From Opitutales bacterium (GTDB taxonomy: Bacteria > Verrucomicrobiota > Verrucomicrobiia > Opitutales > JBHJGM01): a DNA stretch of 64,000 nt. The stretch lies in the NCBI GenBank assembly GCA_050331815.1, contig JBHJGM010000009.1:11187-75186 (forward strand). Direction: 5' to 3'. Both the position numbers and the translations under genes were made by a program. A model generated the notes under the pieces. The model saw only the letters and a list, made by a program, of their open reading frames with translations, had not been told where the DNA came from and ran no database searches. Positions 57,560 through 63,983 of this stretch are shown here, one piece after another; positions within the stretch are counted from its first letter, which is position 1, and the number at the start of each line of letters is the position of its first letter.

Positions 57560-59281
57560 TTAGACCGTCGCCGGCTCCGCGGCCTCGGCGGATTCCGCTT
57601 CGGGCGCGTAGTGCAGGCTTGGTCCCTCGCAAAAGGGAAGTTCCTTCCAGGCCGCGGCGTCAAGCAGCAAGCCTTCGTCGCTGATATCCTTGAACGAAAT
57701 CCCCTTGAGCGCCTCCACTGCGCCTGACAACTCGCGCCAGAGCTGCGCAATGGATGCCGTAGGCCCGGGCGACTCCTTTTTCAACAGCGCCGCCAGCCGG
57801 TCCAGCAGTACACCATCGGCAACCAGACCCGCCGGTCCCGGCACTGCCTGATCAAAGCGCTGCAGCCGGAACTGCTGGTTGATGAACGAGCCGCGCTTTT
57901 CGAAAACCGTCAGGCTTGGCAGCACCACCCGGGCCGCCTCGCTGGTCGCGTTGGCCTGCGTGCCGATGTAAATGATGTTAGCTTTCTTGAGCTTTTCCTT
58001 AGGGAAGCCGGCGGTGGTCAGGTCCTGATTGACGACGACCACGGTCTGCACTTCGCCCTGCTCCACTTGCTCGCGCAGGGTCGAGAGCTCAGCCACGGGC
58101 AACTCACGCGAAAGCCCGGTGACGAGCGCCCCACGCACATTTGGCGTGCGATCCTTGGAAATAAGCAGGCTATCGCCTTCGCCGGTTTGCCCGATCAGGT
58201 GCACCCCGCCCGGCTCTACCTCAATGACTTTACGCAAGAGATACTGCTCCTCGACACTCATGTGCCCGTTTGCCACATAGGCGATACCGGTCACGCTCAA
58301 AAGCTCAACCGCCCGTGCCAGCGCTTCTTCGGCGTCTGACTTATGCCCGTCCGCCCGGAATTGCGTGAGGCGGTTCTCGGACTCAACCTGCTTGTAGAGC
58401 ATGCGGCCCGAATCGCTCATCCAGGTGTCGTTGACGGCGTCGTTGCGGCGCGGGGTGATGCGGTAGACCTTTCCCTCGCGGCTCCACACTTCGGTGTTCA
58501 CCCCAACCGAGCTCTCCGTGCAGATGCCCTTGACCGGCTTCAAAAACCAGACGCGCATTTTGAAGCGGAAGTCCGTGCTGGTCAGCGCGCCGACCGGGCA
58601 GATGTCGACCGTGTTCAGCGAGTAATTCGAGTCGAGTTCGCGGCCTGGATGGCAGGTCAAGGTGGAATGGCTGCCGCGGTCGATGAAGCCCAGAATCGGA
58701 TCTTCGATGATCTCGTTGCAAAAGCGGATACAGCGCGAGCAGAGGATGCAGCGCTCGTCATCAAGGGTGACGCGCGGCCCGAGCCGGGTGCGCTTGGGCT
58801 TGACGTTCTTGTCTTCGACAAAGCGCGAGTAGCCCCGCCCGTAATCGGTCGCAAACTCCTGCAAGCGACACTCCCCGGCCTGGTCGCAAATCGGACAGTC
58901 CAGCGGGTGATTCACCAGCAAAAACTCCATCACGCCCTCCTGGCACTCCTTGACCATTTTCGACTGTGTCTTCAGGTGCAGGTTGGGCGATACCTTGGAG
59001 TTGCAGGCGATGGCCGGCTTCGGCATCCAGCCGATCTTCTGCTTGCCGGTGGCCTCGTCGATAATCGGCTCCTTAGTCGCGCGGTCGGCCATGGGCATGC
59101 CCATTTCCACCAGACACATTCGACAGTTACCGGCCACGCTCAGCTTTGGGTGGTAGCAATAATGCGGGATCTCGATGCCGATTTGTTCCAGCGCGTCGAT
59201 GCAATTGAGCCCGGCGGGCACTTCGTATTCCTTGCCGTCGACGTTGATGGTCACCAGCTGCGGTTTTTCGTCTGCAATCAT
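57560..59281 (-). CDS. nuoG: NADH-quinone oxidoreductase subunit G (short form, 573 aa)
   Basis: N-terminal 2Fe-2S and 4Fe-4S motifs: INVDGKEYEVPAG..HYCYHPKLSVAGNCRMCLVE..HPLDCPICDQAGEC..CILCSRCIRFC. Confidence 0.9.
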   Translation of the reverse strand: MIADEKPQLVTINVDGKEYEVPAGLNCIDALEQIGIEIPHYCYHPKLSVAGNCRMCLVEMGMPMADRATKEPIIDEATGKQKIGWMPKPAIACNSKVSPNLHLKTQSKMVKECQEGVMEFLLVNHPLDCPICDQAGECRLQEFATDYGRGYSRFVEDKNVKPKRTRLGPRVTLDDERCILCSRCIRFCNEIIEDPILGFIDRGSHSTLTCHPGRELDSNYSLNTVDICPVGALTSTDFRFKMRVWFLKPVKGICTESSVGVNTEVWSREGKVYRITPRRNDAVNDTWMSDSGRMLYKQVESENRLTQFRADGHKSDAEEALARAVELLSVTGIAYVANGHMSVEEQYLLRKVIEVEPGGVHLIGQTGEGDSLLISKDRTPNVRGALVTGLSRELPVAELSTLREQVEQGEVQTVVVVNQDLTTAGFPKEKLKKANIIYIGTQANATSEAARVVLPSLTVFEKRGSFINQQFRLQRFDQAVPGPAGLVADGVLLDRLAALLKKESPGPTASIAQLWRELSGAVEALKGISFKDISDEGLLLDAAAWKELPFCEGPSLHYAPEAESAEAAEPATV

Positions 59282-59305
59282 TGTGAAAGAGAAACGTGGA
59301 AGAAT

Positions 59306-59539
59306 TTAAATCGCACGAGCGTGCAACACTGCCTTGGAGTTTCGTGGCAAGAGTTGCATTGCTCTCAAAGTTAAAAACGCCTGGGTCTCACCGTCCAGGC
59401 GTACAAATTCAACTTCGTAAGCCTCAGGAACGTGATACACCGCTGCAATCGTGCCAAGATACCCTTTGCGCAAACCTGAGTGAGCGACCTCCTCGGCAAG
59501 CTGTACGCAATCTAACTCCTTGAATTTCATTTCAGTCAC
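59306..59539 (-). CDS. DUF4926-like small protein
   Basis: 77 aa. FKELDCVQLAEEV..GLRKGYLGTIAAVY..EAYEVEFVRLDGETQAFLTL matches my recollection of the DUF4926 pattern (D.V.L...GL..G..GTIV....YEVEF.d..G.T). Lies in a low-GC insert between nuoG and nuoF. Confidence 0.65.
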   Translation of the reverse strand: MTEMKFKELDCVQLAEEVAHSGLRKGYLGTIAAVYHVPEAYEVEFVRLDGETQAFLTLRAMQLLPRNSKAVLHARAI

Positions 59540-59563
59540 GACTTTTAGGAAGCGGGAAGCAGG

Positions 59564-59861
59564 TCACAAAACTAAAGTAATCTGTTTCATAGGGCAGCAG
59601 CCAGGCTGTTCTGACGAGCGACCAGATGCCGGCATTGCTCTCAAAATGCTATCAACGTGAACTAGATACCCATATTGACATTCTTTTGAGAGGACTGGAA
59701 CGCATGAACTGGCCTGTTGAAGCAGTGCAGCATGTAACTTGTCAGGATGATTTCTGGAAAATCCGACAGATTCGAAAAACTCACATTTTGAGCTACCGAC
59801 AGGATGCGCAGCGTTGAGCAAGTAATCTTGGATTTTTTCCTCGCGAATACTCAGCCTGCAT
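59564..59861 (-). pseudogene. DUF6883-like gene, apparently frameshifted at an A6 run (or using TTG at 59821)
   Basis: Domain frame reads ..EEKIQDYLLNAAHPVGSSKCEFFESVGF.. (DYLL..HP.G..K..FF..GF pattern) and is open up to a TAG at 59894-59896 with no ATG/GTG. The only ATG (59861) is offset by one frame. Deleting one A of the A6 run (plus-strand T6 at 59833-59838) would give MQAEYSRGKIQDYLLNAAHP... Confidence 0.5.
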
Positions 59862-59908
59862 ATGTTCCAAGATTCCTCCCAGGATTTGGATATCTAACTG
59901 CAAAAAAA

Positions 59909-61300
59909 CTAAACCAGCGACCACGGTGCTTTGGAGCCATTGCCATTACCGGAACCGTTTCCGTTCGCATGTCCGTTGCTGTTTGTAGCGTGCGCTGCCT
60001 TGGCCACAAATTCGTCGCGGAACTTTTTGACGAAGCTCTCCGTGGGCCAGGCACAGGCTTCACCGTGGGCGCAAATCGTCCGCCCGGATATTTGTTGCGA
60101 AATCGAAAAGAGCAGATCGGCGTCTTCTTCTCCCCGCGCACCGCCATGGGCCATGCGGTCGGTCACCTTTTTCATCCAGAGCGAACCTTCGCGGCAGGGC
60201 GTGCACTGACCGCAACTTTCGTGGGCGTAGAAGGCGTTGATGTTGGCCAGTACTTCCACGATGTCCGCCGAGTCGTCCATTACCGTGACCGCGCCAGAAC
60301 CTGACATCGAGCCGCAAGCCATCAGCGAGTCGAAGTCCATCGGGATGTCTTCAAGCGCCCAATTAAATTCCTGTCCGCCCTTGAGCTTGCCCTGAAAGCG
60401 CTCGCCCGCCTTCAGCACCTTGGCCGAAGACCCCCCCGGAATCACCGCCTTGAGCGAACGGCCTGGACGCAAGCCCCCGGCCACCTCGTTGATCAACTGC
60501 CCCAAGGTGACTTCGCCACAGGCAAACTCGTAGTAGCCGGGTTTTTGCACATGCCCGCTCACGCTCCAAATACGGGTGCCGGTATTGCCGGGCGTGCCGA
60601 TTTTGGAAAATGCTTCACCGCCCATCTCGATAACGTGCTTCACGTGGCAGAGCGTCTCGACGTTGTTCACAATGGTTGGACACATGTACAGGCCGAGCAC
60701 CGCCGGAAAGTACGGTGGTTTGATGCGCGGGTACGCACGCTTGCCTTCGAGCGATTCGATCAGGCCGGTTTCCTCGCCGCAGATGTAGGCGCCGGCTCCA
60801 CGGTGCACAATCAGATCGCAGGAGTAGCCGGAGCCGCAGATATTTTCGCCGACAAAACCTTTCTCACGAGCTTCCTCGATGGCACGTTCGAGGATGCGCG
60901 CACCTTCATACATTTCTCCGCGAATGTAGATAAACGCCAAGGCGGTCTTGGTCGCAAAAGCACTAATCATCATGCCTTCGATCAGCTGATGCGGATCTTT
61001 ATGCATGATCTGCCGATCTTTGAAAGTGCCGGGCTCGGACTCGTCGGCGTTGCAGATCAGGTAAATGGGCTTGCCGGACTTGCGGTCCAAAAATTTCCAC
61101 TTCATACCGGCCGGAAAGCCCGCGCCTCCGCGACCACGCACGCCCGATTTTTCGACCTCGCTGCAAAGGTCCTCGGGTTTTTGTTGCACGGCTTTCTTCA
61201 ATACCTCGTAGCCACCGTGCTGCATGTAACAGTCGATGTCATTGGTGTAACCGGGCGCGTCGGCGTGCTTCAGGATGATGCGTCGTTCTTGAATGGCCAT
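59909..61300 (-). CDS. nuoF: NADH-quinone oxidoreductase subunit F, with low-complexity Asn/Gly C-terminal tail
   Basis: 463 aa with GRGGAGFPAGMKW (FMN/NADH site) and ESCGQCTPCREG (4Fe-4S). The tail is ..HATNSNGHANGNGSGNGNGSKAPWSLV. Confidence 0.93.
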   Translation of the reverse strand: MAIQERRIILKHADAPGYTNDIDCYMQHGGYEVLKKAVQQKPEDLCSEVEKSGVRGRGGAGFPAGMKWKFLDRKSGKPIYLICNADESEPGTFKDRQIMHKDPHQLIEGMMISAFATKTALAFIYIRGEMYEGARILERAIEEAREKGFVGENICGSGYSCDLIVHRGAGAYICGEETGLIESLEGKRAYPRIKPPYFPAVLGLYMCPTIVNNVETLCHVKHVIEMGGEAFSKIGTPGNTGTRIWSVSGHVQKPGYYEFACGEVTLGQLINEVAGGLRPGRSLKAVIPGGSSAKVLKAGERFQGKLKGGQEFNWALEDIPMDFDSLMACGSMSGSGAVTVMDDSADIVEVLANINAFYAHESCGQCTPCREGSLWMKKVTDRMAHGGARGEEDADLLFSISQQISGRTICAHGEACAWPTESFVKKFRDEFVAKAAHATNSNGHANGNGSGNGNGSKAPWSLV

Positions 61301-61976: not shown

Positions 61977-62480
61977 CTATTCAGCGAGGAAACGCTGGCG
62001 CAACAACGCCCGACCCTCATCCGCGTCAAAGGGCTCAGCTTCGCTGTACATGGTGCGTTCCTGTACCTGAGCCTGTCGTGACTCCAGGTAGCGGGAGGTT
62101 AGCGAGCCCGAGGAGACGTGGCGGCTAGAGCCGTCGGCGGAGTTGGCCGAGTCGTAAGCTGCCTGAGAGCGCGCGATGGCTGTTTCGCCAGTGGTCCCGC
62201 GGTAGTAGCCAGGAAAATCGCGGTAGACCGGACGAAAGTAAGGGCGCACGTAAACCCTGCTGTAGCTGCGGAAGGGAAACCCATGCGAGCGGAAGTGGCC
62301 CACGTGTCCTCCGAAAAAAGGATGCCCGAAGCTGCTGCGTGCGTAACTGCGGTAGCCAAATCCATAACCCAAGCAACTGCCGGCCTGAGCTGCCAGCGGA
62401 GCCCCGGCGATCAGGGCGAACAAAACGACTAAACGGGCTTTCCTCAGCCCGCGCAAGAATTGGGTCAATGGAGCGCGCAT
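61977..62480 (-). CDS. Small secreted Gly/aromatic/Arg/His-rich protein (family member 1)
   Basis: 167 aa. Signal peptide ..LVVLFALIAGAPLAAQA|GS. Mature N-terminus CLGYGFGYRSYARSSFGHPFFGGHVGHFRSHGFPFRSYSRVYVRPYFRPVYRDFPGYYRG. Confidence 0.65.
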   Translation of the reverse strand: MRAPLTQFLRGLRKARLVVLFALIAGAPLAAQAGSCLGYGFGYRSYARSSFGHPFFGGHVGHFRSHGFPFRSYSRVYVRPYFRPVYRDFPGYYRGTTGETAIARSQAAYDSANSADGSSRHVSSGSLTSRYLESRQAQVQERTMYSEAEPFDADEGRALLRQRFLAE

Positions 62481-62788: not shown

Positions 62789-63268
62789 TCAATAGCGTTT
62801 GCGCAACAGCTTCTTTTTCAAAACGAAGCCGCGCTTGTGTCCAAAATGCGTGCGATGGTGCTTCTTCACCACCCCGGTGCCGAGGTAGGCATGGGGATGC
62901 TTTTTTACGATGACCTTCTTCTGCACCCCATGCGTCTGGGCATGGTAGGCCGGGGTCTTGTGCTTGAGCACCGGCTTGGGATGGTGCACCGCGCCGTGTT
63001 TGTAGCCCGGATGCTTGAAGACAAAGCTCTTGCTGAAGGCACCCGGATGCACGTACTGCGGGCTGCGGTTATACACGCGGTGCCCCAAAGCGGGCTTGCC
63101 AATGACCCCACGATTAAAATTGGAGTGGCCAAAGCTGTGCCCGAAGCTGCGGTGGCCAAAATTTGCCTGAGCGGTCAAAGTGGTGCCCAGCAAAAGACTG
63201 GCAGCCACGAGTAATTTGAAGAGAAAACTGCGAGGCAGCCCCCTGTCGGTTCGAAGGTTCTTAATCAT
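62789..63268 (-). CDS. Small secreted His/Lys-rich basic protein (family member 2)
   Basis: Signal ..FLFKLLVAASLLLGTTLTAQA|NFGH. Mature part has about 18 His (NFGHRSFGHSFGHSNF..KHPGYKHGAVHHPKPVLKHK..KKHHRTHFGHKRG) and ends ..LLRKRY. ATG at 63268 is preferred over the TTG at 63286. Confidence 0.7.
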   Translation of the reverse strand: MIKNLRTDRGLPRSFLFKLLVAASLLLGTTLTAQANFGHRSFGHSFGHSNFNRGVIGKPALGHRVYNRSPQYVHPGAFSKSFVFKHPGYKHGAVHHPKPVLKHKTPAYHAQTHGVQKKVIVKKHPHAYLGTGVVKKHHRTHFGHKRGFVLKKKLLRKRY

Positions 63269-63445
63269 GCCGGTGCGACCCTTCAAACGGTTGTTTTATT
63301 CCGACTGGTCCCGAATTCCACAAAGAAGCTGGGATGAGGTTCGCTTATTTTACGTGGGATAATCCGGCAATCAGGATGCACCCCGGGCACCTCCGAAAGG
63401 CACCTGTGCCGGGCGCGTTGAATTTGATCGCCGTTACTGTGATTT

Positions 63446-63542: not shown

Positions 63543-63983
63543 TTAATAGCGCGGGAAAGTACGCTTGGTGACGCCAACCACCACGCGGGTATCCCCGTTA
63601 TTGTAGACCACGCGCCCGCCTACCTTGCCACGCGGCGGCAGCGGAGCCGCGCAGATATTGCCGGGCCCGTAGACGCGCCGCTGGACGTGCGCTCGGCGCG
63701 TTTGCGCGCAACCGCAATTGTAATGCTGGCGATGGAAACGGCGCTGCTGCCAGGCGTGATAGCGCTGACCGTAGCCGTAGGGTCGCCAGTGGTTGGCACG
63801 GTGGCGCGGGTAGTGGATGCGTTCCGTGACCACCTCCCGGTGGACGACTTTGCCCTTACCGTAAGGCCCACCTCCCCGGATCTCCTTGTGGTATGGATTG
63901 GCCTGAGCAGCCGCAGCTGCGGTTACAAGCAGGCTCGAAACTACAAGGAGCTTGAGCGCTGCGAGGGTTTTTGGGTTCCCCAC
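63543..63983 (-). CDS. Small secreted His/Arg/Tyr-rich protein (family member 3)
   Basis: 146 aa, GTG start. Signal ..LKLLVVSSLLVTAAAAAQA|NPYH. Mature part IHYPRHRANHWRPYGYGQRYHAWQQRRFHRQHYNCGC.. and ends ..TFPRY. Confidence 0.65.
   Translation of the reverse strand: MGNPKTLAALKLLVVSSLLVTAAAAAQANPYHKEIRGGGPYGKGKVVHREVVTERIHYPRHRANHWRPYGYGQRYHAWQQRRFHRQHYNCGCAQTRRAHVQRRVYGPGNICAAPLPPRGKVGGRVVYNNGDTRVVVGVTKRTFPRY

Follow-up and report, generated by a model that had tools for sequence, protein, structure and literature searches.

The nuoF-nuoG spacer of the window, the whole 64-kb stretch of Opitutales DNA that was analysed, contains a two-gene DUF6883 + DUF4926 cassette, which is probably an acquired toxin-first toxin/immunity pair whose toxin has been inactivated, whose immunity gene is intact and which is now a nonfunctional passenger. 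A two-gene toxin-immunity cassette of this kind (toxin-first, type II toxin-antitoxin-like) would have been acquired horizontally and inserted, in the orientation of the nuo operon, into the short T-rich spacer between the two genes. Its DUF6883 toxin presumably cleaves tRNA or other RNA via a Lys-Tyr-Thr(+His) site and would be neutralised by DUF4926, intact modules being translationally coupled by overlapping stop/start codons. Here the toxin would have been inactivated by the lack of a canonical start ahead of the catalytic-candidate residues and by a 1-nt deletion, with the immunity gene left intact and the cassette persisting as a passenger on the nuo transcript. In functional type II toxin-antitoxin systems both genes are intact and the antitoxin neutralises the toxin by binding it directly, and in this cassette DUF6883 is disrupted; the broken toxin gene would therefore leave no working addiction or defence module. 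The insertion appears to be recent, the cassette in all likelihood persists as a harmless passenger in decay, and its presence is probably neutral for the biology of the host genome.

The spacer (59282-59908) measures 627 nt in a complex I block where the other gaps between nuo genes are of about 20-60 nt. Coordinates and Pfam matches of both flanking genes (Table 1) agree on this point with the preliminary description, which had singled out the spacer in an otherwise tight block. NuoF has the same C-terminal ending (...PWSLV*) as in the relatives. The GC content of the spacer is 46.25%, compared with 57.8% in nuoF, 61.0% in nuoG and 61.4% in the whole window, and the preliminary count of 283 G+C in the 600 nt from 59281 to 59880 was 282 of 600 when recounted. 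In the sliding-window analysis the spacer had the lowest GC among all 627-nt windows of the 64 kb, whose GC has a mean of 0.614 and an sd of 0.030; it lies about 5 SD under the mean, and this is the only region of the window that falls below 50%. The GC at third codon positions (GC3) was also lower, 0.42 in DUF6883 and 0.52 in DUF4926 where nuoE, F, G, I and J have values of 0.65-0.80, and the compositional steps were sharp at both boundaries of the spacer.

Table 1. Features of the nuoF-nuoG junction in the window, with the evidence for each.
Feature	Position	Strand	Evidence or remarks
nuoG (NADH dehydrogenase 75-kDa subunit)	57560..59281	-	Pfam Fer4_Nqo3, NADH-G_4Fe-4S_3, Fer2_4, Molybdopterin; intact
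24-nt T/C-rich nuoG leader, ATTCTTCCACGTTTCTCTTTCACA	59282..59305	-	Comparison with relatives' spacers
Intact DUF4926 gene for a 74-aa protein (putative immunity protein or antitoxin to DUF6883)	59306..59530	-	Pfam PF16277; NCBI MGF1484476.1
DUF6883 pseudogene, putative BECR-fold RNase toxin	59532..59893	-	Pfam PF21814, homolog-only HMM and family alignments
DUF6883 frameshift zone	59632..59650	-	Three-frame translations and family alignment; 1 nt fewer than homologs
DUF6883 N-terminal 24 codons without ATG, GTG or TTG	59821..59893	-	Translation and family alignments
15-nt T-rich remnant of native nuoF-nuoG spacer, TTTTTTTGCAGTTAG	59894..59908	-	Likeness to relatives' spacers
nuoF (NADH dehydrogenase 51-kDa subunit)	59909..61300	-	Pfam Complex1_51K 159.9 bits, NADH_4Fe-4S 97.7 bits; intact

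The cassette was absent from all 153 nuoF-nuoG junctions of Opitutales relatives, tblastn included, and the spacers of these genomes have a median length of 27 nt and a maximum of 557 nt. In the nearest relatives they are of 0-48 nt and several are T-rich, resembling the 15-nt and 24-nt flanks that are all that separates the cassette from nuoF and nuoG. The last codon of the 15-nt remnant is an in-frame TAG located directly before the DUF6883 frame, and the 24-nt nuoG leader probably represents the rest of the native spacer, judging by its sequence and by the spacers of relatives. The closest host relatives, among genome and metagenome contigs, reach at most 69% NuoG identity. In 11 of the 153 relatives, members of the Opitutaceae, a small gene does occupy this junction, coding for a 23S rRNA-intervening-sequence protein (four-helix-bundle, PF05635). 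Like the cassette it is a co-oriented accessory gene at the same intergenic site, but it belongs to an unrelated family, is not a toxin-immunity pair, and is apparently inherited within a clade. Its spacers, with a GC of 0.53-0.66 in loci of 0.56-0.70, differ by few points and are far less depressed than the one described here. The 15-point drop in GC, the drop in GC3 and the absence from 153 relatives support the foreign origin that had been proposed for the cassette.

No inverted or direct repeats were found at the cassette boundaries. An integron or transposon cassette was considered and discarded, with no repeats, no attC and no room for either. Searches for DNA-level similarity of the cassette to plasmids or phages found none, and no donor lineage could be named from the homolog searches with the proteins of the window. 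Word-index searches with the two proteins recovered nothing beyond the proteins themselves. In an exhaustive HMMER scan the nearest DUF6883 relatives were only about 40-50% identical and none fell below an E-value of 1e-10. The DUF6883/DUF4926 pair is widespread, the DUF6883 cluster representatives numbering more than 1,500.

Both family assignments made in the preliminary description held in profile-HMM searches. DUF4926 (PF16277) scored 57 bits (E 1.2e-15) over positions 1-56 of the 57 of the profile, a full domain above the gathering cut-off of 29.1 bits. DUF6883 (PF21814, gathering cut-off 27 bits) was above the cut-off already as encoded, with 29-46 bits (best 46.3 bits, profile 4-80, in the frame from 59893), and reached 66.0 bits over positions 4-109 of 110 when its two frames were joined. 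Furthermore, DUF4926 was found directly downstream of DUF6883 and on the same strand in nine of the nine other loci checked (six of six metagenomic or genomic homologs plus Nitrosococcus, Rubrobacter and Meiothermus plasmids), as expected from the earlier suggestion that the two families occur as adjacent pairs. Elsewhere the two genes overlap by 4 nt or 1 nt or are separated by a short gap, and in the window the ATG of DUF4926 (59530) sits 1 nt past the ancestral DUF6883 stop (TGA A ATG). Because the two genes are adjacent in nine other genomes and plasmids, their arrangement argues that they are a conserved two-gene module, into which the cassette of the window fits through the presumed ancestral TGA-A-ATG. 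In six other genomes the GC of the pair deviates from its flanks only by -0.075 to +0.03. Neither protein matched the PADLOC anti-phage defence models or NCBIfam at E <= 1.

The structural model points to the kind of toxin that DUF6883 may be. An AF2 model of the frame-repaired protein (pLDDT 88.7, pTM 0.80) begins with four helices, after which comes an antiparallel sheet of four strands. Compared with the PDB by Foldseek its sole significant matches were the four chains of one entry, 6CP9, the CdiA-CT/CdiI complex of Klebsiella pneumoniae 342 (E ~2e-4, prob 1.00, TM 0.65-0.69, sequence identity 17-18%). In this complex the toxin has five helices and then four strands, and CdiI has an alpha-helix and nine beta-strands (PMC9086364 Table 1). 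The match is assigned to the toxin and not to CdiI because the topology of the former fits the model and that of the latter does not. CdiA-CT Kp342 uses K157, Y160, H170, R252 and T255 (PMC9086364). In alignments of the DUF6883 family K20, Y24 and H30 are invariant and R108 and T111 near-invariant; being of the same types, in the same order and at similar spacing, these are candidate counterparts of the toxin's residues. The protein of the window has Ser at position 108, where a large subfamily has Arg, and this position varies among its nearest relatives. Phage "minor capsid" proteins of 473 and 497 amino acids also have this fold in their C-terminal domains (TM 0.80 and 0.84, E 5e-8 and 4e-9); proteins of this kind are the MuF class of polymorphic-toxin carriers (PMC5576092), and a DUF6883 domain makes up the extreme C-terminus of a 648-aa protein. 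Sequence searches against the PDB returned spurious de novo TIM-barrel repeats or nothing. By its modelled fold DUF6883 is best described as a putative family of ribonuclease toxins with a BECR fold of the colicin D / CdiA-CT Kp342 type, and a ribonuclease activity would be predicted for it; this supports, at the level of the model, the toxin-antitoxin-like nature that had been suspected for the pair. In the searchable literature there was no experimental report of toxicity, RNase activity or neutralisation for DUF6883/DUF4926, and both DUFs are mentioned in a preprint on BECR RNases.

The preliminary description had counted two small same-strand ORFs in the spacer. One of them, DUF4926, is intact, but the frame of DUF6883 is broken by the lack of a canonical start and by a 1-nt frameshift. 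Starting at ATA 59893, a first frame encodes residues 1-83; the last ~37 residues are encoded in the -1 frame, which closes with TGA 59534-59532. The simplest reading of the frameshift, from the sequence, is that one T was lost from the T-run at 59643-59646 (ATTTTG). The first canonical start is TTG 59821 (Leu25), downstream of the invariant K20 and Y24, and the 85-aa ORF that begins there (59564..59821) is a mere fragment of the gene. The homologs are unbroken ORFs of ~110-120 amino acids with a canonical start, a pattern that is not found here. The NCBI annotation is limited to 59564..59893, given as a protein of 109 amino acids that starts at ATA, and no gene was called at DUF6883 by the gene caller behind the Logan assemblies. 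An HMM built from homologs only gave 58.7 bits to the protein as encoded and 76.5 bits to the joined frames, a score reached by none of 1000 shuffled C-termini, so that with either model joining the frames gains about 18-20 bits.

As for expression, the cassette is co-oriented with the nuo operon, and neither a terminator-like nor a sigma-70-like site was detected on the coding strand of the spacer. Since no terminator or promoter consensus was found there, the nuoE-N transcript most likely runs through the cassette, and the co-transcription with complex I anticipated in the preliminary description fits these data. Rfam gave no family match in the spacer. A possible RNA element was discarded, the ilvB-OMG match being sub-threshold (15.5 vs 95.9 bits).

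With the toxin dead, DUF4926 might have been kept by selection as an orphan immunity gene on the nuo transcript, acting against DUF6883-type RNases of competitors or phages. We regard this as possible, although rather unlikely. It would agree with the full length of DUF4926 and the conservation of all of its 17 invariant columns in a 7-sequence alignment, and with the occurrence of DUF6883-fold domains on MuF-like minor-capsid proteins of phages and as the C-terminal end of a large protein. DUF4926 is also found alone, without DUF6883, on Deinococcus and M. avium plasmids, where a degraded DUF6883 upstream was looked for and not found, and it is annotated in phage genomes. However, an immunity protein of CDI systems usually acts specifically on the toxin it is paired with, according to a review (PMC9086364), and the unameliorated composition suggests that the cassette is too young for further decay to have taken place. 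The role of DUF4926 as the neutralising partner of DUF6883 is itself putative; no DNA-binding domain was evident in the protein, and its single-sequence structure model was poor (pLDDT 50).

A fully functional addiction module co-expressed with complex I, with lesions that are artefacts or are bypassed by ATA initiation plus slippage, seems very unlikely. The family-invariant residues are all still encoded, spread over the two frames, there are only two lesions and no internal stops, NCBI accepts the ATA start and the frameshift lies at a short T-run. Against artefacts, the cassette is the same to the base in three assemblies, made from two separate runs at least, and it is 100% identical, both lesions included, in two separate single-run Logan assemblies (SRR6462985 and SRR6462995), runs that may represent the same population and sequencing chemistry as the MAG. 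Against bypass, ATA is a very weak initiator codon, and programmed slippage in DUF6883 is unlikely because the T-run is of 4 nt only and no slippery heptamer (X XXY YYZ) exists in the spacer sequence around the frameshift; programmed frameshifting was rejected on these grounds. The product of the first frame would lack beta-strands 3 and 4 of the modelled fold and the conserved W...VT..P motif, although a truncated 109-aa product may be made from the ATA start at a low level. Two suggestions of the preliminary description, a working addiction module and a coupling of an activity to respiration, are therefore not sustained, given the absence of ATG, GTG or TTG upstream of K20 and Y24, the loss of the last two strands, and lesions that are the same in two separate assemblies.

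An assembly chimera, in which a foreign fragment was mis-joined into the contig, might come to mind for a metagenome-assembled genome with such sharp compositional steps, but it is highly improbable: the nuoF-cassette-nuoG junctions are the same in both Logan assemblies (100% identity over 711 nt), nuoF and nuoG are complete, and the short flanks have the appearance of a native spacer that was split. The idea that the two ORFs belong natively to the nuo operon of Opitutales, as accessory genes conserved in the lineage, to which their tight co-oriented packing and the small gene of other Opitutaceae could lend some appeal, is effectively refuted by their absence from all 153 relatives examined, their foreign composition and GC3, and the presence of the same pair in unrelated settings as well as on plasmids from other phyla.

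An acquired and then disarmed cassette provides a clean, datable-looking case of a selfish toxin-immunity cassette that entered an essential respiratory operon. It also indicates, as does the other small gene found there in relatives, that additional, presumably co-transcribed genes are tolerated between nuoF and nuoG in Opitutales. The model-based comparison adds independent computational support for the uncharacterised DUF6883/DUF4926 pair being a BECR-type RNase toxin and its immunity partner, and offers a concrete hypothesis for intact DUF6883 homologs, that of a Lys-Tyr-Thr/His tRNase. Far more speculatively, and we think improbably, the orphan DUF4926 on the complex I transcript could constitutively neutralise injected DUF6883-type BECR RNases (phage MuF or polymorphic toxins), or the crippled toxin, made at a very low slippage-dependent level, could couple a tRNase to respiratory expression.

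Among known systems, polymorphic toxins, including those of phage MuF proteins, share with DUF6883 its C-terminal position in the 648-aa protein and the similar fold of the minor capsid proteins. Typically, these systems also include toxin/immunity cassettes that stand alone and immunity genes that are orphans. Unlike them, the DUF6883 of the window lacks an N-terminal trafficking domain, has no secretion genes as neighbours and is found in a housekeeping operon. Toxin-first type II toxin-antitoxin systems (RelE/BrnT-like; brnTA, higBA) are also small, cytoplasmic operons of two genes, the first of which codes for a toxin of BECR-type fold, and brnTA and higBA, like the DUF6883-DUF4926 pair, lie dispersed over chromosomes and plasmids. 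The structural neighbours listed for CdiA-CT Kp342 include BrnT (PMC9086364), and HigB2 appeared in the fold search with DUF6883 as a weak match at rank 44; however, RelE, BrnT and HigB have no sequence or Pfam relationship with DUF6883. The system with the significant structural match is CdiA-CT/CdiI of K. pneumoniae 342 (6CP9), a colicin D-like BECR tRNase that shares with the DUF6883 model the topology of helices followed by a four-stranded sheet, the order Lys, Tyr, His, (Arg), Thr, and a toxin gene followed by a small neutralising gene (putative in the case of DUF4926). It differs in that DUF6883 stands alone, lacking the CdiA delivery region, and in the identity of only 17-18%; and CdiI(Kp342) is a dimer made almost wholly of beta-strands (PMC9086364), whereas DUF4926 is a protein of 74 amino acids.

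The preliminary description had drawn attention to a low-GC spacer with two small ORFs between nuoF and nuoG, in an otherwise tightly packed complex I block, and both observations hold. The gaps between the other nuo genes are of about 20-60 nt, and a recount of positions 59281-59880 gave 282 G+C in 600 nt (originally 283). With a GC content of 46.25%, versus 57.8% in nuoF, 61.0% in nuoG and 61.4% in the window, the spacer is the minimum among all 627-nt segments of the 64 kb (mean 0.614, sd 0.030) and the sole region below 50%. Third-codon-position GC was 0.42 and 0.52 in the two genes, which code for a DUF6883 and a DUF4926 protein respectively, versus 0.65-0.80 in nuoE, F, G, I and J. The names on both cassette proteins lead to an Opitutales (Verrucomicrobiota) MAG.

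Position of the cassette-bearing spacer and of the genes at both sides of it
Feature	Coordinates	Strand	Length	Basis
nuoF	59909..61300	minus		Pfam
nuoG	57560..59281	minus		Pfam
nuoF-nuoG spacer	59282..59908		627 nt	

As to the surrounding genes, the C-terminus of NuoF (59909-59990) is an Asn/Gly-rich low-complexity tail (NSNGHANGNGSGNGNGSKAPWSLV) not common to most relatives, alignments to which stop at residues 431-449. Directly 5' of nuoE there are three small minus-strand ORFs (61977-62480, 62789-63286 and 63543-63983; 146-167 aa), each with a hydrophobic signal-peptide-like N-terminus followed by a sequence in which His, Arg, Gly, Tyr and Phe abound; none of them has a Pfam match. Genes nuoA-D are absent from the ~2 kb 5' of nuoE within the window.

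We gathered 160 NuoG loci from species-representative genomes and metagenomes, all with 55-69% identity to the NuoG of the window; no closer relative of the host turned up. In the 153 with nuoF ahead of nuoG, the gap between the two coding sequences (nuoF stop to nuoG start) had a median of 27 nt and reached at most 557 nt, and similarity to either cassette protein was found in none, indicating that the cassette is not a conserved nuo feature. Together with the steps in GC and GC3, this supports the foreign insertion originally suggested. The nearest relatives have spacers of 0-48 nt, several of them T-rich, and the short stretches on either side of the cassette, of 15 nt (TTTTTTTGCAGTTAG) and 24 nt (ATTCTTCCACGTTTCTCTTTCACA), resemble them, so the cassette seems to have split a native spacer leaving nuoF and nuoG undamaged. 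Boundary repeats are absent, and the flanks leave no space for an attC site. Neither plasmids nor phages resemble the cassette at the DNA level, and the spacer matches no Rfam family. The coding strand of the spacer has no terminator-like or sigma-70-like site, hence read-through from nuoF to nuoG across the cassette, and its proposed co-transcription with the complex I genes, are likely.

The nuoF-nuoG junction is permissive in Opitutales. In 11 of the 153 Opitutales relatives (NuoG-bearing loci L042:3538-3966, L018, L023, L048, L065, L118, L124, L135, L139, L164 and L175) the spacer measures 418-557 nt, and at least nine of these 11 encode a co-oriented 23S rRNA-intervening-sequence (four-helix-bundle, PF05635) protein (87 bits in L042); in another clade, then, this junction accommodates a small accessory gene of a different kind. 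In a Ruficoccus MAG, the second-closest relative (L002:3791-4000), a 210-nt spacer of 47% GC encodes a hydrophobic, putative membrane ORF of 64 aa (beginning MQFILAQVPAGIFF) without a significant Pfam match.

Profile-HMM searches bore out the assignment to both families. DUF4926 (PF16277, 57 bits, profile positions 1-56 of 57) is encoded in full length by the downstream ORF, which most likely starts at the ATG at 59530 (74 aa), a start on which NCBI annotation and homolog alignment agree. The upstream ORF is a DUF6883 (PF21814), with 29 bits for the 85-aa ORF opened by a TTG and 46.3 bits for the longer frame from 59893. Neither protein is covered by a model in NCBIfam or PADLOC.

The DUF6883 gene of the window is broken, lacking a canonical start before K20 and Y24 and carrying a frameshift. 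Its frame begins with ATA (59893), directly 3' of a TAG stop, and the first ATG, GTG or TTG is the TTG at 59821 (Leu25), downstream of the family-invariant K20 and Y24. The Pfam match of the encoded frame ends at profile position 80 of 110, and the missing C-terminus (ending in NAGIWSLVRTAWLLPYETDYFSFVTCFPLPKSRD before the stop) is encoded in the -1 frame. With both frames joined, the Pfam score is 66.0 bits instead of 46.3 and the match extends over profile positions 4-109; with an HMM built only from homologs the encoded product scored 58.7 bits versus 76.5 for the repaired one, a value reached by none of 1000 versions with a shuffled C-terminus (maximum 64.6). The shift lies within ~59632-59650, and would most simply be explained by one T having dropped out of the run at 59643-59646. 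The ancestral stop would be the TGA at 59534-59532, one base ahead of the DUF4926 ATG, a tight coupling as in intact homologs. In the NCBI annotation the gene begins with the ATA and its 109-aa product includes an out-of-frame tail; the gene caller of the Logan assemblies placed no gene here.

These lesions are not assembly errors, since the Logan contigs of SRR6462985 and SRR6462995, two independently assembled runs, match the window with 100% identity across a 711-nt stretch that includes the entire cassette. Programmed recoding is unlikely as well, because the DUF6883 sequence has no X XXY YYZ slippery heptamer and transcriptional slippage would not be efficient on a T4 run as short as this. 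A 14-nt direct repeat without mismatches (TTTGAGAGCAATGC, minus strand) occurs at 59356-59369 in DUF4926 and at 59632-59645, exactly in the frameshift zone, and is read as LRAM in the present frames of both genes (chance expectation in 627 nt, ~7e-4). In the DUF6883 N-terminal region (59859-59880, minus strand) a Shine-Dalgarno-like GGGAGG lies 13 nt 5' of an out-of-frame ATG (59861) that opens a mere 22-codon ORF (MQAEYSRGKNPRLLAQRCASCR and a stop); this is probably coincidental.

An exhaustive HMMER scan gave 184 DUF6883 representatives at E <= 1e-3. The nearest are ~40-50% identical and only the window protein itself falls below 1e-10, which places it on an isolated branch. A profile search widened the family to 1,538 members. 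The suggested occurrence of both families as adjacent pairs was confirmed: in all six member contigs inspected a co-oriented DUF4926 gene lies directly 3' of DUF6883, the two overlapping by 4 nt or 1 nt and surrounded by unrelated housekeeping genes. Annotated pairs also occur on plasmids of Nitrosococcus halophilus, Rubrobacter radiotolerans and Meiothermus taiwanensis. In these other genomes the GC of the pair minus that of its flanks ranges from -0.075 to +0.03, a contrast that underlines the unameliorated composition of the window cassette. Five prime of one pair (L085:1506-2445) a succinate dehydrogenase/fumarate reductase-type FAD-binding flavoprotein gene (FAD_binding_2, Succ_DH_flav_C) is broken into three short called genes (71, 70 and 55 aa), probably indel noise of the assembly. 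Three homologs have unusual architectures: an N-terminal MNT-type nucleotidyltransferase (NTP_transf_2) fused to DUF6883 (P0061), a DUF6883(1-82)-DUF4926 fusion that looks like another frameshift casualty (P0094), and, in a toxin-like deployment, DUF6883 as the very C-terminal part of a 648-aa protein (P0143).

The AlphaFold2 model of the repaired DUF6883 (120 homologs; pLDDT 88.7, pTM 0.80) shows four helices and, after them, an antiparallel sheet of four strands. Its sole significant PDB matches were four chains of 6CP9, CdiA-CT/CdiI of Klebsiella pneumoniae 342 (E about 2e-4, probability 1.00, TM 0.65-0.69). The toxin in this complex has five helices and then four strands and the immunity protein one helix and nine strands (PMC9086364 Table 1), so the match is to the toxin, a colicin D-like BECR tRNase that acts on uncharged tRNA-Ile through a Lys-Tyr-Thr triad plus His and Arg (K157, Y160, H170, R252, T255) (PMC9086364). 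Across the DUF6883 family K20, Y24, H30 and K36 are invariant and R108 and T111 near-invariant; K20, Y24, H30, R108 and T111 follow the same order with similar spacing, a likeness in sequence order rather than by superposition, making a correspondence with the catalytic set suggestive. The window protein keeps K20, Y24, H30 and T111 and has Ser at 108, a position that varies in its nearest relatives too. By its predicted structure DUF6883 falls in the BECR fold class and looks like a BECR RNase toxin. Both families are named in a preprint that classifies BECR ribonucleases, DUF6883 six times and DUF4926 twice. The fold was also found in BFVD models A0A8S5PTW3, A0A8S5QFC3 and A0A8S5MSY7 (TM 0.63-0.84), namely phage 'minor capsid' proteins of 473 and 497 aa (TM 0.80-0.84, E down to 4e-9) and a 316-aa 'zinc-binding metallo-peptidase'. 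Minor capsid proteins are known carriers of polymorphic toxin domains (PMC5576092), and the models suggest that virion-associated polymorphic toxins use a DUF6883-like, RNase-like domain.

From its invariable downstream overlapping position we infer that DUF4926 is the immunity or antitoxin partner; its single-sequence model (pLDDT 50) was unusable. DUF4926 is annotated in phage genomes and occurs alone on Deinococcus and Mycobacterium avium plasmids, where no DUF6883 remnant was found nearby, consistent with orphan immunity or anti-toxin genes.

The intact module would consist of a small cytoplasmic RNase, probably a tRNase, and a translationally coupled neutralising protein, either a toxin-first type II TA-like or an orphan polymorphic-toxin cassette. 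Its foreign composition and few lesions point to a recent entry into the spacer, after which the toxin would have been silenced by loss of the start codon and by the frameshift, the latter removing the conserved W…VT..P motif along with beta-strands 3-4. DUF4926, the putative immunity gene, is still intact and is probably transcribed with nuo; it may be kept by selection as an orphan. The suspected toxin-antitoxin nature is supported by the predicted fold of DUF6883 but does not extend to function in the window, where the toxin gene is disrupted, and the idea of a working addiction element in the complex I operon is not supported: the cassette is best seen as a disarmed passenger. Its location is unusual, yet probably inconsequential given the inactivated toxin. 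Among characterised systems CdiA-CT/CdiI(Kp342) comes closest, and in a wider sense the BECR toxins of the colicin D and BrnT/RelE types together with their inhibitors.
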